NCBI GenBank assembly: GCA_020849895.1
Contig: JADZFN010000034.1
Location: 7,942-71,941, forward strand
Length of the DNA stretch: 64,000 nucleotides
Direction of reading: 5' to 3'
DNA from: Verrucomicrobiia bacterium
GTDB lineage: Bacteria; Verrucomicrobiota; Verrucomicrobiia; JABWAM01
Shown here: positions 53,733-64,000 of the stretch, piece by piece
Position numbering within the stretch: position 1 is the first letter of the stretch
Layout of the letters: each line of letters begins with the position of its first letter
Notes under the pieces: generated by a model
The model's input: the letters and a program-made list of their open reading frames with translations, nothing else
Databases searched by the model: none
Told to the model about the DNA's origin: nothing
Translations under genes and position numbers: made by a program

Positions 53733-56621
53733 GTGCATTCTCCTTCGCTTCCGGACAATTCCCCGGTGAAACCGGGGGTGGTCTCGTCGGCCTTCCTACT
53801 TCTTGGAGGCGCATTTTTTCTCCTGTTCTGCGCGGAACTCCTCATGGTGCCCGAGTGGTTCGTGACGGGAGCGCGCGACGCCGGCATGGCAGCAGTGCTT
53901 CATGCGGCGGTGCTGGGCTGGCTGCTGTCTGTGGGGTTTGGCGTCGTCTATCTCCTGCTCTCCGCGCTCCGCGCGACTCGACGGGGCGAAGGCCTTGCGG
54001 GACGGGTTCATTTCCTTTGCCATCTGACGGCCTTGGGCCTCTTGCTCCCCGCGTTCGCCCGATGGGACCTTGCGCTGGTGGCGCACGCAGGCACCCTGAT
54101 GCTGGTCGGGTTCCTCATCTTTGGAACGCTTTGCACGGGCAGTCTGGAAAAGGGGAGGCGCCTGCCGATGGTTCAGGTCACCATCGTCAGCAGCCTGACT
54201 TGGCTTTTCTTGACGCTGATTCTTGGGATTCTGGCGGCCGCTAATTATTATTGGACGTTTCTGCCGATGGGCACTTTGCGGGCGGTTCACGCCGGCATGC
54301 ACGCGGGGTTCGGCGGTTATGTGGTCCTCCTGCTCGTAGGGCTTTCGTATCCGCTGTTTCAGGCGGAGGCGCGCGGGAGCATGGAGCGGAGGCTCTGGGT
54401 GTTCCTCCTTTGCAACAGCGGCCTTTATCTCTCGGTGCTGGGGATCGCCTTCAGTTTGCCGGTGCTGCTTCCCGCGGTATTGCTCATCCTGGCGGGCCTC
54501 GTCCTTTACCTCATGGAGGCGATGGTCGGATTGCAGCTGCGCCATGGGCCGGCGGACGCCTGGGTTTGGGGGCTGCTGGCGGGTTTTCTTTCCATCCTGT
54601 TGCTCATGGGGCTGGGCCTCGCACTCGGCTTGAGCTCCAGCCAGACGCCTGTCGCGCTCGGGCGGCTGGAAAATCTATATGGCTTCTTGTGGATCACGAT
54701 CGCCACGGGTCTTCCGCTCTGGGCCGTGGCGGGCCGCATGTTGCAGCCCCGCGCGGGAAACCGGCGGCGGACCCGGATCACCCTGTTCTTCTACGTGACC
54801 GCCGCCCTCGTGGGTGGCTGGGGAATTTTTATCGGAAGCCCGCGCGGAGTGCGCGTCGGCGGACTGCTCCTCCTCCTGGGCGGCGGGGATCTACTCCTCA
54901 CGCTGCTGCCGGGATTGTGGACGGCGCTTTCGGGCCGCGTATCGCGCACGGAAGACGACCGCAAGGCCGCCGTCGAAACGGCGAACGAACGACTCGGACC
55001 GCCGATCGTGGTCTGGGCGATCCTGGTGGCGGTCGTTGCATGGATCCTCGCGGGGCTGCTGCCGCATTCGGGCGCGCACCGTCCGCGCGTGATCAGTGTC
55101 GAGAAGAGCGTCTCGATGAACGGAGACGGCCCGGCCTGCCCGGTGCGGCGTTGGATCGGCCTCAAGAACGATTCACTGGCCCGCGGAAAGAATCTTTACG
55201 GCCAGCATTGTGCAACCTGCCACGGAACGACCGGCGCGGGCGACGGCAGCGCGGCGATTTATCTTTATCCAAAACCGCGCAACTTCACCGCCGGCCAGTT
55301 CAAGCTCCGTTCGACCGCCTCGGGCATGCCGACCGACGAGGACCTTTACCGGGTGATGAGCGCCGGGATGTCAGGCAGCTCGATGCCGTCCTTCGCGCAC
55401 CTGTCCGAGCAATCCCGCCGCGATCTGGTGGAGTATGTCAAGCGCCTCAGCCAGGCGGAGGAGAATGGACGGATGGTGAATTGGTTCAAGGAAACTCCGC
55501 CGGGCTCCTCGCTGCCCACGCCACGCAAGCCGGAGTTCACGCCCGAGCTCGCGGCCGCCGGCAAGCGGGTCTATCAATCCCAGGATTGCAAACGCTGTCA
55601 CGGCCCGGAAGGACGCGGCGACGGGCCGGAAGCGGCGACGTTGAAAGATTCCTGGGGCGGCCGCCTGCGCCCGCGCAGTCTGGTCCAGGATCCTTTCCTT
55701 GGCGGTGACGCCGCAGAATCCATTTTCCTGAGAACGGCGACGGGAATCGGCGGCACGCCGATGACGGCCTATCCCGACACACAGATCAAGCCGGAGGACC
55801 GTTGGGCGTTGGTCGCCTACATCCGCTCCCTTCGTCAGCAAGCCGGCACGCTGGACGAAGGGGCCCCCAGCGCCTCACCCGTCGCTGAGCCGGTCGCCCG
55901 CCATCTGAAGGGCGCGCTGCCTTCTTCCCCCTCCGATCCGTCATGGGACGCGCTGCCCGTCGCGCTCGTAGCCGTCAATCCGGTGTGGCGCACGACGCAG
56001 CCGACGCGCCACGCCGCCCTCCGCGCCGCGCATGACGGCAAAGATCTCGCGCTGCTGCTCGAATGGTCGAATCCTGAACCGGTGCTCGGCGGTGGGCGCG
56101 TCCAGGATTACACGGATCGCGCGGCGCTCCAGTTCAGCCTCCACGCGAGCCCTGGATTCCTGGGCATGGGCGATCCATTTCGCCCGGTGAACCTGTGGCA
56201 GTGGAGCTGTCGTCGCCGCGCAACCAGCCAGGGACCCCAGGCGCTCATGATGGACATCTATCCGGAGAAGAAAGCGGACCTCTATCCCGACGGACGCAAG
56301 CTTGTCTATTCGGCTGAAATGGCGGGGAATCTCGTCGCGGAGGAAGGGGTGGACGCCATCGAAGACGCCAACGCCCAAGGCCCGGGGACGCTCGCGCTGC
56401 AATCCGCGGCTGATCAGAATGTCATCGGCGCGAGCGCATGGTCGGAAGGCAAATGGCGGGTGCTTTTCCGGCGGAGCCTGGTCCCGAAGGGGCGCGCCGA
56501 CGTGGACCTCGCCCCGGGACATCGCGTTCCGGTGGCGATCGCGATTTGGGACGGACGCACCCGCGATCGCAACGGACAAAAAAACGTCTCCGCCTGGCAT
56601 TTCCTCACCCTTGAACCCTGA
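53733..56621 (+). CDS. fusion protein: polytopic membrane domain + two c-type cytochrome domains + EB_dh (type II DMSO-reductase gamma-subunit-like heme-b) domain
   Basis: GTG start. Residues 1-~440 contain about 13 hydrophobic helices with several intramembrane His (LHAAVLGW, HFLCHL, VAHAG, AVHAGMHAGFGG). CATCH lies at aa 493 (nt 55209) and CKRCH at aa 619 (nt 55587), with downstream Met candidates (SSMPSF, GTPMTAY). The C-terminal ~240 aa (AALQFSL...VNLWQWS...WSEGKWRVLFRRSL...VAIAIWDG...) resemble the ethylbenzene-dehydrogenase gamma/cytochrome c-552-DMSO-reductase-like heme-binding domain. Confidence 0.8.
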   Translation: MHSPSLPDNSPVKPGVVSSAFLLLGGAFFLLFCAELLMVPEWFVTGARDAGMAAVLHAAVLGWLLSVGFGVVYLLLSALRATRRGEGLAGRVHFLCHLTALGLLLPAFARWDLALVAHAGTLMLVGFLIFGTLCTGSLEKGRRLPMVQVTIVSSLTWLFLTLILGILAAANYYWTFLPMGTLRAVHAGMHAGFGGYVVLLLVGLSYPLFQAEARGSMERRLWVFLLCNSGLYLSVLGIAFSLPVLLPAVLLILAGLVLYLMEAMVGLQLRHGPADAWVWGLLAGFLSILLLMGLGLALGLSSSQTPVALGRLENLYGFLWITIATGLPLWAVAGRMLQPRAGNRRRTRITLFFYVTAALVGGWGIFIGSPRGVRVGGLLLLLGGGDLLLTLLPGLWTALSGRVSRTEDDRKAAVETANERLGPPIVVWAILVAVVAWILAGLLPHSGAHRPRVISVEKSVSMNGDGPACPVRRWIGLKNDSLARGKNLYGQHCATCHGTTGAGDGSAAIYLYPKPRNFTAGQFKLRSTASGMPTDEDLYRVMSAGMSGSSMPSFAHLSEQSRRDLVEYVKRLSQAEENGRMVNWFKETPPGSSLPTPRKPEFTPELAAAGKRVYQSQDCKRCHGPEGRGDGPEAATLKDSWGGRLRPRSLVQDPFLGGDAAESIFLRTATGIGGTPMTAYPDTQIKPEDRWALVAYIRSLRQQAGTLDEGAPSASPVAEPVARHLKGALPSSPSDPSWDALPVALVAVNPVWRTTQPTRHAALRAAHDGKDLALLLEWSNPEPVLGGGRVQDYTDRAALQFSLHASPGFLGMGDPFRPVNLWQWSCRRRATSQGPQALMMDIYPEKKADLYPDGRKLVYSAEMAGNLVAEEGVDAIEDANAQGPGTLALQSAADQNVIGASAWSEGKWRVLFRRSLVPKGRADVDLAPGHRVPVAIAIWDGRTRDRNGQKNVSAWHFLTLEP

Positions 56622-56625
56622 CCTT

Positions 56626-59600
56626 ATGAGCGAGCCCGACTTCTCTCCGCAAGGAAACGCCGACCCGACACACGAAGGCGACGCGTCCCATTTCAGCCGA
56701 CGCGCCTTTCTCTGTCTCGCCGGCCTCGCCGGCGCGGGCGCTTTGGCGTCCCAGTATCTTCCGACGCGCTTCCTGCGTCCCTCTCGCGATATCAAGAATC
56801 CCCTCGCCTACTATCCCGAGCGCGGTTGGGAATCGGTCTATCGCAATCAGTATGCGCATGACGGGACCTTCTCCTGGGTGTGCGCGCCGAACGACACCCA
56901 CAACTGCCGCGTGCTCGCCCATACGCGCAACGGGGTCATCGTCCGCATGGGCGACCAATACGACGTCGGGACCTACCGCGATCTTTACGGGAACACGGCC
57001 TCGCAGAATTGGGGCATCCGCCAATGCGCCAAGGGCTATACCTTCCACCGCATCGTCTACGGGCCGTTCCGGCTCAAGCATCCCATCGTCCGTCGAGGAT
57101 GGAAACAGTGGGCGGAGGCGGGGTTCCCCGATCTCACGCCCGAACTTCGGTCGAAGTTCCGCTTCGACGACCGAGGAAACGACGAGTTCGAAAAAGTTGG
57201 TTGGGACGAGGTCAACCGCCTGATCGCAAAGGCGCTCAAGTCCATCGCCACGCGGTACAGCGGCGAAAAAGGCGCGGCGCGCCTGAGGACGGAAGGTTAT
57301 CCCGAGGAGATGATCGCGGACATGGGCGGCGCCGGCACGCGCACGATTAAGACGCGCGGAGGCATGGGACTGCTCGGTGTCCTGGGCAAATACGGAATGT
57401 ATCGCCTCTGCAATTCGCTCGCCCTCCTCGACCAGCACGTGCGCGGAGTTCCGGACGAACAGGCGCGCGCGGGACGCATCTGGTCGAACTACACCTGGCA
57501 CGGCGATCAGGCGCCCGGCCACCCCTGGGTGCACGGCCTCCAGAACAGCGAGTGTGACTTCAACGACCTCCGCTCCTCGAAGCTCATCATCATGAACGGC
57601 AAGAATCTTGTCGAAAACAAGATGGCTGAGGCGCACTGGTTCATCGAGTGCATGGAGCGCGGCGCGAAGATCGTCGTGATCGCCCCCGAATACGGCGCGC
57701 CCTCGACGAAGGCCGATTACTGGATCCCCGTCCGCCCCTCCACCGACGCTGCGCTCTGGCTCGGCGTCGCTCGGATCATGATGGACCGGGGCTGGTACAA
57801 GGAGGATTTCGTCAAGCGCTTCACCGATTTCCCGCTGCTCGTCCGCGCCGACAACCTGCGCCGCCTGCGGGCCCACGAGGTTTTCCCGGGATATCAAGGG
57901 CGGCTCATCAAGGAGGGTGCGAGCTTCACCGTCCAGGGACTGACCGAGGAACAGTATGCCAAGACCGGGGATTTTGTGGTCTGGGACCAAATGAGCGGCG
58001 GACCGAAGCCCATCACTCGCGATGAGGTCGGCGAGAAGATGACGGGATTGGATCCCGCGCTCGACGGCCGCTGGAAAATCCGACTGGCAGACGGTCGCGA
58101 GGTGGAGGTCTTCGCGCTGTGGACCCTCTATCGGGAACACCTCAAGGATTACGATCTCGATACGGTCGCGGAAGTCACCCACGCGCCCAAGGAACTCATC
58201 GAACGATTGGCGCATGATTGCGCCACGATCGAACCGGTCTCGATCCATCAGGGGGAAGGGATCAACCACTGGTTCCACGGTACGGAAGCCAACCGCGCCT
58301 CCTATCTTCCTCTCATGCTGACCGGCAACATCGGGAAACGGGGCGCGGGCAGCCACGGCTGGGCCGGCAACTACAAGGCCGCGCTCTTCCAAGGATCGAA
58401 GGAAACCGGTTACGGATTCAAGGGATGGGTGGCCGAGGACCCGTTCCATCCGCTGCTCGATCCGAAGGCGCCCGGCAAGGAGGTCCATGCGCGCCCCTGC
58501 TTCAAGGATGAGGAGCCCGCCTATTGGAACCACGGAGACGTGCCGCTCATCGTGAACACGCCGAAGGAGGGGCGAAAGTGTTTCACCGGCAAGACGCACA
58601 TGCCGACACCGACCAAGGCGATCTTCTTCTGCAACGTCAACCTCATCAACAATGCGAAGTGGTGCTACGGGATGATCAAGAACGTCAACCCGCGCGTCGA
58701 GTTGATCGTCACGATGGACATCCAGATGACGGCTTCGGCCCAGTTCGCCGACATCGCCCTGCCGGCGAACTCCTGGGTCGAGTTTCAGGACCTCGAAGTC
58801 ACCGCGAGCTGCTCGAACCCCTTCCTGCAGATCTGGAAAGGCGGCATCAAGCCGCTCTATGACTCGCGCGACGACCTCGCCATCCTCGCGGGCATCGCGA
58901 AGGCGTTGGGCGACGAGACCGACGACCGCCGCTTTCACGATTACTTCCGTTACGAGCTCGAGGGCAAGCGTTCAGTCTATCTTCAGCGCCTGCTCGACAC
59001 CTCGACAACCACCGCGGGCTACAAGCTCGAAGACATCATGGCCGGCAAATACGGTCCGCCCGGTGCGGCGCTGATGCTTTTCCGCACCTATCCACGAATT
59101 CCGTTCTACGAACAGATTCACGACAACCTCCCGTTCCACACGGACACGGGGCGGATGCACGCCTACAGCGACGATCCCACCGCGATCAGCTGCGGAGAAA
59201 ACTTCATCGTGCATCGGGAAGGTCCCGAGGCCACACCCTATCTTCCGAACGCGATCCTCTCCAGTAATCCGTATGTGCGTCCCAACGATTATGGGATCCC
59301 TCTCGACGCCCAGGGTTGGGACGAGCGCACCGTGCGCAACGTCAAAATGAACTGGGCGGCCATCAAGAAGAGCAAGAACTTCCTCTGGGAAAAGGGCTAC
59401 CAGTTCTACTGCCTGACTCCGAAGTCGCGTCACCGCGTGCACTCGACATGGTCGAACGTGGACTGGCACCAGATCTGGGATTCCAACTTCGGCGATCCAT
59501 ATCGGCTCGACCGACGGCTCGCCGGCGTGGGCGAGCACCAGCTGCACATCAATCCCGCCGCCGCGCGCGATCTGGGCATCAAGGACGGGGATTACGTCTA

Positions 59601-60111
59601 CGTGGACGCCAACCCCGCCGATCGCCCGTATTACGGGGCGACGCCCGCCGATCCGTTCTACAAGATCAGCCGCTGCATGCTGCGCGTCACCTTCAACCCG
59701 GCCTATCCCTACCACGTCGTGATGATGAAACACGGAACCTACATTGCCACCCCCAAGACCGTGAAGGCGCAGCAGGAGCGCCCCGATGGCATGGCGATGA
59801 GCGACGACGGCTACATGGCCAATTTCCGCTTCGGTTCGCAGCAGTCCATCACGCGCAACTGGCACATGCCGATGCACCAGACGGACACGCTTTTCCACAA
59901 GACGAAGGCCTTCATGGGCTTTCTCTTCGGAGGCGAGGCGGACAACCACGCCCTGAACACCGTCCCGAAGGAATGCCTCGTGCGCATCGTCAAGGCCGAA
60001 GACGGCGGCCCGGGCGGCCGCGGCATGTGGAAACCCGCCACCGAAGGCATGTCTCCGGGCGGCGAGGATGAACGGATGCAACGCTACCTGCGCGGCGATT
60101 ACGCCGCCTGA
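56626..60111 (+). CDS. Tat-exported molybdopterin oxidoreductase, type II DMSO-reductase-family alpha subunit (NarG/NxrA-like)
   Basis: Track ORF 56302.. trimmed to ATG 56626, 4 nt after the upstream stop. Twin-arginine signal SHFSRRAFLCLAGLAGAGALA. FS0 cluster motif C86-x3-D90-x3-C94...C134. WHGD294QAPG aligns with the NarG Asp Mo-ligand region. 1161 aa. Confidence 0.88.
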   Translation: MSEPDFSPQGNADPTHEGDASHFSRRAFLCLAGLAGAGALASQYLPTRFLRPSRDIKNPLAYYPERGWESVYRNQYAHDGTFSWVCAPNDTHNCRVLAHTRNGVIVRMGDQYDVGTYRDLYGNTASQNWGIRQCAKGYTFHRIVYGPFRLKHPIVRRGWKQWAEAGFPDLTPELRSKFRFDDRGNDEFEKVGWDEVNRLIAKALKSIATRYSGEKGAARLRTEGYPEEMIADMGGAGTRTIKTRGGMGLLGVLGKYGMYRLCNSLALLDQHVRGVPDEQARAGRIWSNYTWHGDQAPGHPWVHGLQNSECDFNDLRSSKLIIMNGKNLVENKMAEAHWFIECMERGAKIVVIAPEYGAPSTKADYWIPVRPSTDAALWLGVARIMMDRGWYKEDFVKRFTDFPLLVRADNLRRLRAHEVFPGYQGRLIKEGASFTVQGLTEEQYAKTGDFVVWDQMSGGPKPITRDEVGEKMTGLDPALDGRWKIRLADGREVEVFALWTLYREHLKDYDLDTVAEVTHAPKELIERLAHDCATIEPVSIHQGEGINHWFHGTEANRASYLPLMLTGNIGKRGAGSHGWAGNYKAALFQGSKETGYGFKGWVAEDPFHPLLDPKAPGKEVHARPCFKDEEPAYWNHGDVPLIVNTPKEGRKCFTGKTHMPTPTKAIFFCNVNLINNAKWCYGMIKNVNPRVELIVTMDIQMTASAQFADIALPANSWVEFQDLEVTASCSNPFLQIWKGGIKPLYDSRDDLAILAGIAKALGDETDDRRFHDYFRYELEGKRSVYLQRLLDTSTTTAGYKLEDIMAGKYGPPGAALMLFRTYPRIPFYEQIHDNLPFHTDTGRMHAYSDDPTAISCGENFIVHREGPEATPYLPNAILSSNPYVRPNDYGIPLDAQGWDERTVRNVKMNWAAIKKSKNFLWEKGYQFYCLTPKSRHRVHSTWSNVDWHQIWDSNFGDPYRLDRRLAGVGEHQLHINPAAARDLGIKDGDYVYVDANPADRPYYGATPADPFYKISRCMLRVTFNPAYPYHVVMMKHGTYIATPKTVKAQQERPDGMAMSDDGYMANFRFGSQQSITRNWHMPMHQTDTLFHKTKAFMGFLFGGEADNHALNTVPKECLVRIVKAEDGGPGGRGMWKPATEGMSPGGEDERMQRYLRGDYAA

Positions 60112-60116
60112 ACGCT

Positions 60117-60377
60117 ATGCCAAAGGACGAAACCGACCGTGACGATCCGTTGGAGCTTAACGGCGCGGTCGTGCCGTGCTCCGAAGACAACGACGAGGAA
60201 ATGGCCGTGGCCTTCATCGAGGAGTTCCTCATGCTCGACTATGAGCCGGCGCACCTCCTGGATATCTTTCGGGACCCGAATCACGTCGGGCCCCATCGCG
60301 TTTATGTGAACAAAGGCGAAGCCTGGGTGGCCGGACTGATCGCCAAGACCCTCGAACCCTGGACCCAATCCTCATGA
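60117..60377 (+). CDS. 86-aa acidic hypothetical protein between the alpha and beta subunit genes
   Basis: Starts MPKDETDRDDPLELNGAVVPCSEDNDEEMAVAFIEEFLMLDYEPAHLLDIFRDPNHVGPHRVY... The ATG lies 5 nt after the alpha stop, and its stop overlaps the beta ATG (ATGA). I recognise no family. Confidence 0.6.
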   Translation: MPKDETDRDDPLELNGAVVPCSEDNDEEMAVAFIEEFLMLDYEPAHLLDIFRDPNHVGPHRVYVNKGEAWVAGLIAKTLEPWTQSS

Positions 60378-61645
60378 GCCAAGTGTACAACTGGCATCTC
60401 GGGCGCGACATGGCCTATCCCTACGAGGCCAGTTATCCCGACCTGCAATTCGCCTTCGTCTTCAACACCAATCGCTGCATCGGCTGCCAGTCCTGCACGA
60501 TGGCCTGCAAGTCCACATGGACCTTTTCAGCGGGACAGGAATACATGTGGTGGAACAACGTCGAGACCAAGCCCTACGGCGGCTACCCGCGCCATTGGGA
60601 TGTGAAGCTCCTCGACATGCTCCACCAGGTCAACGGCGGCCCCGGCGAATGGTCTCGCGCGTCCGACACCCGTCGCGCGCCGTGGGGCGAATTCCACGGG
60701 AAAACCATCTTCGAAACCGCGCCCAACGCTCCTACGGAAAACGGCTCCCAGACTGCGCTCGGCTATCTCCCGTCCGATGAGGAATGGAACACACCCAACC
60801 TTTTCGAGGATAACCCGGTCAACGCCCGCGCCACGAAAAAAGGCGAATACTTCAAGAGCGGGACGGAAATGCCTTCGCATGACGCCTGGTTTTTCTATCT
60901 TGCGCGCATCTGCAACCACTGCACCTATCCCGCCTGCCTCGCGGCTTGCCCACGAAAGGCAATCTACAAGCGTCCGGAGGACGGCATCGTCCTCATTGAT
61001 CAGAAGGAATGCCGGGGCTACCGCAAGTGCATGGAAGCGTGTCCTTACAAGAAGACCCACTATCGTGCGACCACACGGACGACCGAGAAGTGCATCGGCT
61101 GCTATCCGCGCATCGAGGGCAAAGACGCCGACGCGAAAGGACGCCCCTTCACCACCCGTTGCATGAGCGCCTGCATCGGTCAGATCCGTCTGCAGAGCTT
61201 CATCAAGCTGAACGGAGACGGCACTTGGGCGGAGGAACGCAACAACCCGATCTACTACCTCGTGCATGTCGCGAAGATCGCTCTTCCGCTCTATCCACAG
61301 TTCGGCACCGAACCCAACGGCTTTTACATCCCGCCCCGCTGGGTGCCGCGTCCCTACCTGCACCAGATGTTCGGTCCCGGCGTGGATGCCGCCATCGAGA
61401 AATACACCGCTCTCGACCGCGAGACCCTCGCCGTCCTCCAGCTCTTCGGGAAGGACAAGCACATCTGCCGCCGCTATGAGATCCGCGAAGGCCCGAAGGT
61501 CTTCGAGAAGGAGATCCGGGGACGGAAAGTGGAGATCTTCAACGACACCATCATCGGCTACGACGCGGATGGACGAGAAATCGTCCGCGCCACCGTCGAG
61601 GAACCGCTCCACGTCCGGAACGCAAAGCATGCCAACTCGATCTGA
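60374..61645 (+). CDS. iron-sulfur beta subunit of type II DMSO-reductase-family enzyme (NarH/NxrB-like)
   Basis: Four ferredoxin-type Cys groups: CIGCQSCTMACK, CNHCTYPACLAACP, CRGYRKCMEACP (a 3Fe-4S-type group with Y where NarH has W) and CIGCYPRIE...RCMSACIGQIR. The N-terminus is MSQVYNWHLGRDMAYPYE...EYMWWNNVETKPYGGYP. 423 aa. Confidence 0.9.
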   Translation: MSQVYNWHLGRDMAYPYEASYPDLQFAFVFNTNRCIGCQSCTMACKSTWTFSAGQEYMWWNNVETKPYGGYPRHWDVKLLDMLHQVNGGPGEWSRASDTRRAPWGEFHGKTIFETAPNAPTENGSQTALGYLPSDEEWNTPNLFEDNPVNARATKKGEYFKSGTEMPSHDAWFFYLARICNHCTYPACLAACPRKAIYKRPEDGIVLIDQKECRGYRKCMEACPYKKTHYRATTRTTEKCIGCYPRIEGKDADAKGRPFTTRCMSACIGQIRLQSFIKLNGDGTWAEERNNPIYYLVHVAKIALPLYPQFGTEPNGFYIPPRWVPRPYLHQMFGPGVDAAIEKYTALDRETLAVLQLFGKDKHICRRYEIREGPKVFEKEIRGRKVEIFNDTIIGYDADGREIVRATVEEPLHVRNAKHANSI

Positions 61646-62420
61646 CTCTCCAGCAGCGGCTTCCTCCGCAGTCGCCGTCGCGGCGGCGCGGGCGTTCGCC
61701 TACCGCTTTCTCTCCGAAACCTTCGCTTATCCCGAAGCGGAGGGCTGGGTTTGGGCGCAGGCGAAGGAGACTGGAGAGACGCTGGCTCGCGCTGCCGCCG
61801 ACGCGTGGCCCGATCACCCTGAAATCCGAAAAGCGGCCGAGGAAGCCGTCCACGCGCTCCGCGAGGTTTCCCTGGAGGCTGCGCGCGCCGACCACCTCCG
61901 CGCCTTCGGCTACACCATCCGCGGCGCCTGCCCTCCGCACGAGATCGAATACGGCGATACGAAGGCGGACGCCCTTTTCCGTCCGCATCGCCTCGCCGAT
62001 CTCGCCTCGCTCTACCGCGTGTTCGGGCTCGAGATGAGAGAGGAAATCCGCGAACGCCTGGATCATCTCGCCATCGAGTGCGAGTTTGCCTCCCTCCTCG
62101 CGGCGCGCACGGCGCACGCCGCGCAGGAAGGCCATGCCGAAGGGCAGGAGTCCTGCGAGAGCGCTTGGAAACTTTTTCTCGGGGAACACCTCGGGCGCTG
62201 GACGCCCTCGTTCGTCTCGCGCCTCGGGCGCGGCGGAACCGCTCCATGGCTCCAGCGCGCCGCGGCGTTTCTCATGGCGGTCGTACGCGTCGAGTGCGCC
62301 GCCCTCGGCCTTCAGCCCGGCTCCGCAGAAATCGAGCTCGTCTCCTACGACGAGGACGACGACGCTTTTTGCGCCGAGAAATGCGGCCTCCCTGTAGGAA
62401 AAACCGACGGTGCGCCGTGA
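61629..62420 (+). CDS. TorD/NarJ/DmsD-family redox-enzyme maturation chaperone (delta subunit-like)
   Basis: Track ORF 61266.. trimmed to ATG 61629, which overlaps the beta end by 17 nt. Contains ARAFAYRFLSETFAYPEAEGW...ADHLRAFGY...PHEIEY...DHLAIECEFASLL...FLGEHLGRW, the pattern of TorD-like chaperones. Confidence 0.75.
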   Translation: MPTRSDSPAAASSAVAVAAARAFAYRFLSETFAYPEAEGWVWAQAKETGETLARAAADAWPDHPEIRKAAEEAVHALREVSLEAARADHLRAFGYTIRGACPPHEIEYGDTKADALFRPHRLADLASLYRVFGLEMREEIRERLDHLAIECEFASLLAARTAHAAQEGHAEGQESCESAWKLFLGEHLGRWTPSFVSRLGRGGTAPWLQRAAAFLMAVVRVECAALGLQPGSAEIELVSYDEDDDAFCAEKCGLPVGKTDGAP

Positions 62421-63352
62421 AGATCCGTTTCGACCGCGACCTGATCGAGGCCGCCTATCTCTCGGCCGGTCCTCGGGAAGATCTGGACCGCGAAGAGCTG
62501 TACGATCTTCGCGACGAACGCGAACGCAACGAGGCGTTCGGCGCGCATCACGCCCGCTGGTTCCGCAAAGCGGGGTTCGAGGCCAGACTCCTCGGCGCAT
62601 TCGCCGAGTGGCCGAGGGTGGGCGAGAACTGCGAGGAAGCCGTACTCCGTCGGGTGCGCAACCCGGCCGACGAGTTCGCAGAGCTGTTCCGCAATCGCGA
62701 AGGGCTTTCCCGCGTGGGCGTCGGTCTGCGCGCGAGCCGTCTCACGGACGGGTCGTACCTTCCTTTTCTGCGCCACGAGCTCGCCCACCTCGACGATATG
62801 TTCGACCCCGGGTTCGGCTACCCCGGAGAAGTTCCCCGGGACCCCTCGCCCGCGGCGCAGCTCCGGAGAGAACGCTACCGCATCCTCTGGGACCTGCGCG
62901 GAGACTCCCGTCTGCAGCGGCGTTTCCCGGACGCCCCCGATTTCTCAAAGGCCCTGGCGCGCCACCGGAGCGAATTCGAACGCGTCTTTTCCTTCATGGA
63001 CCTTGCGGAACGCGAGGCGCTCTTCGACGAGATCACGAGCGAGACGTCGGCCCCGCATGCCCGCCTCTGGGAAGTGGCCTGCGACCCGCGCCACCTCCGC
63101 GGTCGGGAGAGTGTCGAAGCGCCTGGCGCGGAGTGCCCCCTCTGCAGGTTCAGCACCTTTCAGTGGGCGTCGAACGAGGCGCGGGAAACCGCCGCACCGG
63201 CGATCCGAAACGAGTTTCCCGATTGGCGGCCGGAACACGGCTGCTGCGAGCGGTGCGCGGAGGTCTACGCCGCTGTCCGTTCCTCGGCGATTCCTCCGAC
63301 GGTTCTGCTTCCTTCTCGCCTTTCGCAAAGCTCGCGCGTCCTCCTCCAATAG
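62417..63352 (+). CDS. hypothetical protein with HExxH motif and C-terminal Cys4 (zinc-ribbon-like) motif
   Basis: Track ORF 62078.. trimmed to GTG 62417, which overlaps the chaperone stop (GTGA); ATG 62381 is an alternative start. Contains LPFLRHELAHLDDMFDP (HExxH) and a C-terminal CPLCRF...(~35 aa)...CCERCAEVY. Confidence 0.6.
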   Translation: MKIRFDRDLIEAAYLSAGPREDLDREELYDLRDERERNEAFGAHHARWFRKAGFEARLLGAFAEWPRVGENCEEAVLRRVRNPADEFAELFRNREGLSRVGVGLRASRLTDGSYLPFLRHELAHLDDMFDPGFGYPGEVPRDPSPAAQLRRERYRILWDLRGDSRLQRRFPDAPDFSKALARHRSEFERVFSFMDLAEREALFDEITSETSAPHARLWEVACDPRHLRGRESVEAPGAECPLCRFSTFQWASNEARETAAPAIRNEFPDWRPEHGCCERCAEVYAAVRSSAIPPTVLLPSRLSQSSRVLLQ

Positions 63353-63463
63353 GGCGATCTTTCAGCGCTTCCGCACGGCGACAGCGGGCATGGCGAGATC
63401 CTCCCGCCCCTGCCTCCTTTCCGCCTTGAGTCGAGTTTTTCCGCCGGACAAAATGAAACGATC

Positions 63464-64000
63464 ATGCTCCGAGCCGGAATCGTCGGTCTACCCAACGTGG
63501 GCAAAAGCACGCTCTTCAACGCGCTCATCCGCGCGCGAAAAGCGGATGCCGCCAACTACCCCTTCTGCACCATCGAACCGAACATCGGAGTGGTCGCCGT
63601 GCCCGATCCGCGTCTCGACCGCCTCGCCGAGATGTCTCGTTCGGCGAAGAAGGTCCCTGCCGCGATCGAGTTCGTGGATATCGCCGGGCTCGTCAAAGGC
63701 GCCAGCCAGGGCGAAGGGCTCGGCAACCAATTCCTCACGCACATCCGCGAAGTGGATGCAATCATCCAGGTCGTCCGCTGTTTCGAGGATGCAAACGTCC
63801 ATCATGTAAGCGGCAGCATCGAGCCGTTGCGCGACATCGAAGTGATCGCAACGGAACTCGTCCTCGCCGATCTCGCCTCGCTTCAGCGCCGCAAGGACAA
63901 ACAGGGGAAAGCGGCTCGTAGCGGCGACAAGATCGCGCAGGCCGAAATGCGCGTCATCGAAAAAATCGAACCGCATCTCGATGGAGGAAAGCCCGCGATC
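63464..64000 (+). CDS. ychF: ribosome-binding ATPase YchF (partial; continues past the window end)
   Basis: My own translation from ATG 63464 is [54 protein letters not shown]...[24 protein letters not shown]... The frame is open to base 64000. Confidence 0.9.

Follow-up and report, generated by a model that had tools for sequence, protein, structure and literature searches.

The 64,000-nucleotide (nt) stretch of DNA analysed here (the window) belongs to a Verrucomicrobiia bacterium (contig JADZFN010000034.1). At positions 53733-56621 of the forward strand, on which all the features described below are placed, it carries an uninterrupted frame of 962 codons with a GTG start. The product (962 amino acids (aa), database entry P0009) joins in a single chain an oxidase-like membrane module, an anchor helix, a dihaem cytochrome c domain and an EB_dh domain, the last corresponding to NxrC, the gamma subunit found in nitrite oxidoreductase (NXR). 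The module is a histidine-bearing, internally triplicated membrane protein with the predicted fold of haem-copper oxidase (HCO) subunit I. It is the dedicated partner of an NXR-type enzyme and in one lineage it is covalently attached; both this partnership and the protein family itself are new. The fusion points to a previously undescribed route by which a periplasmic nitrogen-cycle enzyme is wired into the membrane. Literature searches on the fusion architecture, on NXR in Verrucomicrobiota, on the DUF2249/DUF59 gene cassette described below and on a link between NnrS and HCO turned up no account of the partnership or of the family.

It is not settled in which way periplasmic NXR-type enzymes are linked to the membrane and the remainder of the respiratory chain. 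The structure of the Kuenenia NXR ends at the NxrC haem without an identified partner (PMC8387239), and the NXR of Nitrospina "likely requires an additional membrane anchor" (PMC3578206). A partner encoded in the same polypeptide, and by overlapping genes in sister lineages, is a concrete and expressible candidate for the missing link.

The HCO-like module (aa 1-401, nt 53733-54935) contains 12 transmembrane (TM) helices, which the AlphaFold models place over aa 16-400. The cytoplasmic linker that follows (aa 402-424, nt 54936-55004) is poorly ordered, with a low predicted local distance difference test (pLDDT) score, and lies at the site of the stop/start junction in split relatives. The 13th TM helix (aa 425-441, nt 55005-55055) leads the chain into the periplasm; in those relatives its equivalent is the signal-anchor with which the gamma subunit begins. 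The dihaem cytochrome c domain (nt 55140-55847) matches Pfam Cytochrom_C and Cytochrome_CBB3, at aa ~480-570 and 607-700, and contains the haem-binding motifs CATCH (55209-55223) and CKRCH (55587-55601). By their position, M551 and M677 are candidates for its distal ligands. The chain terminates with the EB_dh haem-b domain (nt 55995-56618, aa 755-950), which scores 74.5 bits against a Pfam cut-off of 33.3 and whose predicted haem ligands are M812 (56166) and K950 (56580).

The loops of the module contain at least 14 Lys and Arg residues on the cytoplasmic side (even loops) versus 2 on the periplasmic side. By the positive-inside rule, this bias places the N-terminus inside and everything past helix 13 in the periplasm; the haem c and haem b domains are thus on the same side as the Tat-exported alpha subunit. 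A preliminary description of the window, made by eye, had already proposed this domain order, about 13 N-terminal helices, the periplasmic location of the haem domains and the Tat export of alpha. Pfam (two cytochrome c domains, then EB_dh), the AlphaFold models (12 helices plus the anchor), the loop charges and the SRRAFL motif at the alpha N-terminus agree with it on each point. Its CxxCH positions, nt 55209 (C493) and 55587 (C619), were exact; the start of EB_dh is nearer nt 55995 than the 55890 given there.

The fusion recurs. A full-length query recovered two fused orthologues at 100% coverage, P0159 (962 aa, 72% identity) and P0160 (961 aa, 70% identity), the second present on at least 24 contigs from several samples in the same operon setting. 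When the three fused proteins are compared, conservation is lowest in the linker, which varies by in-frame insertions and deletions; helix 13, the two CxxCH motifs and the six TM histidines are kept throughout. P0159 and P0160 had been missed by a word-indexed query with the module only, which returned just stand-alone proteins of 410-467 aa. In their contigs, the genes of these stand-alone modules sit directly 5' of a gene for a 537-545-aa dihaem-c and EB_dh protein.

In about ten further relatives the module and the gamma subunit are encoded by separate genes that adjoin or overlap. The junctions consist of an in-frame stop followed by a start (locus L001), a 4-nt ATGA overlap (L002, L004, L015) or a 7-nt gap (L005), and the split pair is followed by the genes for alpha, a small open reading frame (ORF), beta, delta and a gene of unknown function. 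Since helix 13 is the former signal-anchor of the gamma subunit, the fusion preserved the topology. The single-chain design put forward in the preliminary description holds for three fused lineages and is lineage-specific, as most relatives have separate abutting genes.

Three grades of linkage between the module family and the NXR-type operon are observed. In the first one, a cassette of cupin, DUF2249/TusA, HCO-like and DUF59 genes lies 5' of the NXR operon (L116, L141); L103 has the same cassette near its NXR operon, with an HhH-GPD gene in the DUF59 position. In the second one, the HCO-like gene abuts or overlaps the gamma gene (L001, L002, L004, L005, L008-L010, L015, L016), and the identity to the window module falls as low as 31%. 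The third grade is the fusion itself, found in the window protein, P0159 and P0160. The DUF59 (FeS_assembly_P) cassette was seen at L014 9101-11634, L012 623-2860, L017 6066-8694, L116 1349-3977, L141 1738-4008 and L103 343-3047. At other loci the cassette is present without NXR, in one case beside a NirK-type gene. Some Bacteroidota-like members of the family carry DUF59 fused at their C-terminus (P0049, P0061, P0062, P0070).

The preliminary description had found the membrane module not assignable by eye. It is assignable: the structural model and the profile comparisons place it as a probable remote homologue of HCO subunit I, with the predicted fold of that family and without its canonical ligand set. 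The N-terminal 460 residues gave no Pfam match at E<=10, no NCBIfam match and no PDB sequence match with phmmer. A profile built from the nine closest sequences retrieved 479 cluster representatives at E<=1e-3 among 1.84 billion proteins. The family comprises ~480 clusters at 50% identity, mostly stand-alone proteins of 420-450 aa annotated as "hypothetical" and occasionally as "cbb3-type cytochrome oxidase subunit 1". The AlphaFold model of the module, based on a 116-sequence alignment, has a pLDDT of 90.7 and a predicted template modelling score (pTM) of 0.90. A Foldseek search of this model against the PDB gave, for every one of matches 1-39, subunit I of an oxidase (cbb3, aa3 or bo3) or of a nitric oxide (NO) reductase, with template modelling scores of ~0.6; beyond match 39 only unrelated folds appear, with scores <0.3. 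The first model gave the same picture. The family profile, not the window module alone, matches solved HCO structures (CcoN, E=2e-15; NorB, 9e-4), and distant family members reach Pfam COX1 with E-values up to 4e-15, whereas the window module has no COX1 match. Other membrane partners found no support: CydA-like, NarI and NrfD/PsrC proteins gave no Pfam or NCBIfam match, and in each of the two Foldseek searches the 50 matches listed include no chain of bd oxidase, NarI, PsrC or alternative complex III.

The module is built of three repeats. Helices 1-4, 5-8 and 9-12 match each other in profile comparisons (hhalign E=3e-13, 3.5e-14 and 2.5e-12), while column-shuffled or reversed controls gave E-values of 0.03-0.7. 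To our knowledge, the repeat of canonical oxidase subunit I can be recognised from the structure only.

Six histidines lie within the TM helices: H57 (codon at 53901) in helix 2, H93 (54009) and H97 (54021) in helix 3, H118 (54084) in helix 4, and H186 (54288) and H190 (54300) in helix 6. The conserved-looking membrane histidines on four helices that the preliminary description had singled out are thus borne out, as the fused proteins and most of their closest relatives retain all six; P0010 and P0012, the most distant of the NXR-linked members, have Tyr or Phe in place of H97. Over the family, 115/116 members have H57 and 96/116 have H190, and the two residues occupy equivalent positions in the internal repeat. 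In the alignment to CcoN, H57 falls on H347, the low-spin haem-b ligand of helix X. The same alignment sets family helices 5-8 on CcoN helices I-IV, with the helix II ligand H60 at column 186, beside H190.

The histidine pattern also separates branches of the family. The clade tightly linked to NXR is marked by H118 together with H186-x-G-x-H190, the general family by H188-x-H190, and the cassette type found beside NXR has H186, H188 and H190 all three. The HxH motif of the wider family resembles helix X of the oxidases. H93 and H97 were considered as CuB-like ligands and rejected, both being at the cytoplasmic end of helix 3.

The remaining genes of the operon identify the enzyme. Directly downstream of the fusion gene, an NxrA-type molybdopterin catalytic subunit (alpha, 1161 aa, 56626..60111) carries the Tat signal SRRAFL and matches Kuenenia stuttgartiensis NxrA (7b04_B) with 1681 bits, query residues 23-1158 aligning on chain residues 3-1142. 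Its "CAPNDTHNCR" aligns with "CSPNDTHACR" of the K. stuttgartiensis alpha subunit (KsNXR-A), and the Asn/Asp pair of the active site and FS0 is kept. In KsNXR-A, Asn70 positions the substrate and Asp71 is a ligand of FS0 (PMC8387239). The NxrB-type iron-sulfur (FeS) subunit (beta, 423 aa, 60374..61645) matches Fer4_11 and DMSO_red_II_bet, and the TorD/NarJ-type chaperone (delta, 263 aa, 61629..62420) matches Nitrate_red_del and DMSO_red_II_cha. The corresponding NCBIfam models, TIGR03478 for beta (3e-75) and TIGR03482 for the chaperone (1e-17), were both matched below their trusted cut-offs, which is a likeness at the subfamily level. By homology, the locus is predicted to encode a periplasmic NXR-type nitrite oxidoreductase/nitrate reductase with NxrA, NxrB, an NxrC-type gamma subunit and a chaperone.

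The EB_dh domain matches the Kuenenia gamma subunit KsNXR-C (7b04_C) with E=9e-21, and M812 and K950 align with Met155 and Lys305, its reported haem-b ligands (PMC8387239). For the dihaem c domain the match is to a dihaem cytochrome of Kuenenia (6h5l_B), over ~220 residues with both CxxCH motifs (E=7e-47). This chain, whose PDB title is merely "conserved hypothetical cytochrome protein", is presumably of the Kustc0457 type. It was crystallised with a Kuenenia HAO-like octahaem enzyme, and the likeness links NXR-type gamma subunits with anammox electron carriers.

The alpha subunit was used to scan one genome per species, which gave 529 loci; the best 80 (L103-L182) were inspected together with 6 kb of upstream sequence. 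Nearly all of them have a gene for a ~520-560-aa dihaem-c and EB_dh protein directly 5' of alpha. Among the hosts are Verrucomicrobiota, Phycisphaerae, Omnitrophota, Methylomirabilota, Syntrophobacteraceae and Acidobacteriota, as well as the culture Limisphaera sp. VF-2, which has the operon but no HCO-like gene in the 6 kb upstream. The premise of the preliminary description that gamma subunits of this type are small haem-b proteins is therefore wrong for this clade. The dihaem-c/EB_dh architecture is not rare and is of an already known kind: "alt_NxrC" of Nitrospina, described in 2013, has 1-3 haem c sites and a haem-b domain (PMC3578206). The NxrA homologues of these 80 loci are 69-77% identical and are found, with the dihaem-c/EB_dh gene upstream, in genomes of organisms that are not known nitrifiers. 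At L181 269-3328 (+), of Methylomirabilota, an ORF of ~1020 aa lies beside the usual gamma gene. Its C-terminal half combines three stretches of cytochrome c with an EB_dh domain, its N-terminal part of ~550 aa is without assignment, and it may be another large fusion of the gamma type.

On balance, the module is probably a membrane redox unit with haem b, by which the periplasmic chain of haems is linked to the membrane. In the proposed arrangement, the module would bind, between helices 2 and 6 (H57/H190) and close to the periplasmic side, at least one bis-histidine haem b, equivalent to the low-spin haem of the oxidases. Helix 13 would tether the dihaem c domain right above the module, as CcoO and CcoP are placed on CcoN in cbb3 oxidase. 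Electrons would then pass, in either direction, between the membrane haem b, the two haems c, the Met/Lys-ligated haem b, the FeS clusters of NxrB and NxrA, and Mo, the module being the membrane terminus of the enzyme's wire. The continuous wire through these centres that the preliminary description had suggested fits all the sequence evidence. The hosts and the neighbouring genes, such as the NarK/NrfHA island of L005, favour the nitrate-reducing direction, and quinol-to-nitrate electron flow (respiratory nitrate reduction) is probably the prevailing one in these heterotrophic Verrucomicrobia. In vitro, the Kuenenia enzyme reduces nitrate faster than it oxidises nitrite (PMC8387239).

Several observations weigh against this interpretation. 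Canonical HCO have six histidines that bind the low-spin haem (helices II and X), the high-spin haem (X) and CuB/FeB (VI, VII and VII). The module does not present this set and has no histidine on helices 7 and 10; consequently, it is regarded as HCO-like in fold and ancestry and is not filed as an oxidase or NO reductase. The register to HCO is ambiguous because of the three-fold internal repeat, CcoN being colinear but shifted by eight helices and NorB and Foldseek giving a 1:1 correspondence; for this reason no circular permutation is claimed. H186 and H190 are one helical turn apart on the same face and therefore cannot each ligate a separate haem, and H93, H97, H118 and H186 are left without a role. 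No quinol site was found in the module. Among the best 80 loci, an HCO-like gene occurs within 6 kb upstream in only 3, so that the module is not essential to the enzyme. A periplasmic quinol-to-nitrate route is also not electrogenic by itself. Finally, the cupin, DUF2249/TusA, DUF59, NirK-type and NnrS gene contexts hint at a role related to NO over one related to quinol.

An alternative, which is unlikely, is that the module is an electron sink, with a divergent catalytic site of the oxidase or NO-reductase kind that is fed by nitrite oxidation or by the c haems and reduces O2 or NO. In that case the fusion would amount to a nitrite:O2 or nitrite:NO oxidoreductase complete in itself, or else to a nitrate reductase that carries its own NO detoxifier. 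Every characterised HCO takes electrons from c haems or quinol into subunit I, and the layout of the fusion, with an N-like module followed by TM-anchored c haems, mirrors that of cbb3 oxidase. The NXR clade has six conserved TM histidines, equal to the number in HCO, and the HxH motif of the wider family, with its resemblance to oxidase helix X, argues in the same direction. The family also recurs with genes for N-oxides and NO stress: at L013 the HCO-like gene adjoins a multicopper gene of the NirK type that includes a cytochrome c domain, Rrf2 and ScdA/hemerythrin genes neighbour some of the split operons, and at L146 an NnrS fusion is found. NO/N2O has a far more positive potential than nitrate/nitrite, and nitrite oxidation with NO as acceptor would accordingly be exergonic. 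On the other hand, the histidine-free helices 7 and 10 and the missing Pfam COX1 match of the window module argue against a catalytic site. H188, which would be the best candidate to ligate a high-spin haem, has been lost in the NXR-linked clade, and H93/H97 lie at the cytoplasmic end of helix 3, away from the positions of CuB/FeB ligands. The hosts and neighbouring genes resemble those of heterotrophic nitrate or nitrite reducers, not of nitrite oxidisers. A bolder form of this alternative, which is very doubtful, sees the module as a still-catalytic, unusually symmetric offshoot of the HCO/NO-reductase family that forms with NXR a one-complex nitrite:O2 or nitrite:NO oxidoreductase, the repeat keeping the ancestral triplication. 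If the catalytic reading were true, nitrite oxidation would be wired straight into a terminal reductase, with no soluble carriers.

It is doubtful that the module stands outside the redox wire altogether, as an anchor or scaffold or as an NnrS-like protein for NO protection or cofactor handling that is merely co-expressed and became fused in one lineage. Its absence from most related operons fits such a role, as do the anchor helix that the gamma subunit already owns and the pairing of the family elsewhere with DUF59, DUF2249/TusA and cupin proteins. These points are opposed by the near-invariant intramembrane histidines at positions homologous to HCO haem ligands, and by the clade-specific H118 and H186 signature, which tracks the association with NXR. 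Translational coupling and three independently sampled fused lineages suggest a stoichiometric complex.

The relation to NnrS can be specified further. PF05940 gave no match at E<=10 for the module and none at E<=1 in ten family members. The canonical NnrS profile (A4) lacks similarity to the family profile (A2), with an hhalign probability of 0.4%, and the NnrS of L005 reached 0.7%. By contrast, one NnrS-annotated protein, that of L146, matches the family profile at 96.8% probability (E=2e-10). In this locus (912-2861, +), from a Phycisphaerae metagenome-assembled genome, a ScdA_N - NnrS - DUF1858 fusion occupies the slot 5' of the gamma gene. Membership in NnrS is therefore rejected at the family level, and the bridging protein of L146 leaves room for a remote relationship. 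The island of L005 contains NarK, NnrS, NrfH and NrfA; NrfH and NrfA score above their NCBIfam cut-offs and NarK is a sub-threshold subfamily match (2e-64).

The weakest alternative, an assembly or sequencing error that joined two genes into the 962-aa frame, draws on the separate genes of most relatives and on the single stop codon that parts them, in the same frame, in L001, and it is already refuted by the two further fused lineages, at 70-72% identity and full coverage with one of them on at least 24 contigs, and by in-frame linker changes of the kind expected of a genuine evolving linker. The joining of genes by a frameshift, which the preliminary description had named as a possible refutation, is thus excluded.

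Two further proteins complete the operon. Between the alpha and beta genes lies a gene for an 86-aa protein (60117..60377), which is present in every related operon examined and has no family match. The protein is very acidic (MPKDExDxDDPLELNGAVVPC...) and recalls kustd1701/1702, two small genes of no known function in the equivalent position in Kuenenia. The operon ends with a gene (62417..63352) for a 311-aa cytoplasmic protein, whose orthologues are likewise encoded last in L002, L005 and L020. It contains an HExxH motif (FLRHELAHLDDMFDP) and, at the C-terminal end, a cluster of Cys residues (CPLC...CCERC), and it gave no Pfam or NCBIfam match. The ORF listed at 62410-63429, in a different frame, is a spurious Arg/Pro-rich frame of high GC content; the real gene is the one at 62417-63352. 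Directly 3' of the operon, from ~nt 63465, a candidate gene for a YchF-like GTPase was named by eye from its N-terminal motif. By its RpoB, which is 75% identical to that of Verrucomicrobiae/Chthoniobacterales metagenome-assembled genomes, the window falls in Verrucomicrobiota. Positions 1-44000 of the window hold chromosomal housekeeping genes (rho, EF-G, rpoB, rpoC, M24 peptidase, amidohydrolase), and no other respiratory or nitrogen-cycle genes were seen near the operon in the window.

Apart from the wiring of the enzyme, two points follow from these data. The three-fold repeat, recognisable at the sequence level, bears on the origin of the oxidase/NO-reductase fold. Moreover, dihaem-c NXR-like operons are widespread in non-nitrifying phyla, and matches to "nxrA" in metagenomes need not mean nitrite oxidation.

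The enzyme resembles the NXR of the Kuenenia/Nitrospira/Nitrospina type (7B04) in its full-length alpha subunit with Tat signal and "PND" at FS0, in its 423-aa NxrB, in the EB_dh gamma subunit with aligned Met and Lys and in the TorD-like chaperone, and it shares with Kuenenia the small ORF between the alpha and beta genes (compare kustd1701/1702). It differs from these in that the gamma gene comes first and the gamma subunit has a dihaem c domain and a TM anchor, and in that the host is a member of Verrucomicrobiota and no known nitrite oxidiser or anammox bacterium. The membrane partner is here an HCO-like 12-TM protein, which is fused, whereas the Kuenenia cluster lists the CydA-like kustd1712 (PMC6423088). 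Unlike 6H5L chain B, the dihaem c domain is internal, between the TM anchor and EB_dh, and is no separate partner to an HAO-like enzyme. The module is similar to NnrS (PF05940) in being a 12-TM, histidine-bearing protein tied to NO and denitrification genes, with an NnrS-annotated fusion in the same slot at L146, but neither the module nor ten family members match PF05940. In Nitrospina gracilis, the cbb3 oxidase has 13 TM helices and then c-haem domains in a single chain of 954 aa, a general layout that the 962-aa window protein shares, and alt_NxrC combines haem c sites with a haem-b domain of the DMSO-reductase type (PMC3578206). There, the two are separate proteins with separate roles, whereas the window protein is one chain whose membrane part is no canonical oxidase. 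With subunit I of HCO and NO reductases (CcoN, NorB, CoxI, CyoB), which are its sole PDB structural matches, the module shares the pseudo-three-fold arrangement of 12 TM helices, a conserved histidine aligned with the low-spin haem ligand and TM-anchored periplasmic c-type partner domains. It is distinguished from them by its histidines on helices 2, 3, 4 and 6, without canonical CuB/FeB or high-spin haem ligands, and by three four-helix repeats that are still recognisable in the sequence (E ~1e-12 to 1e-14).

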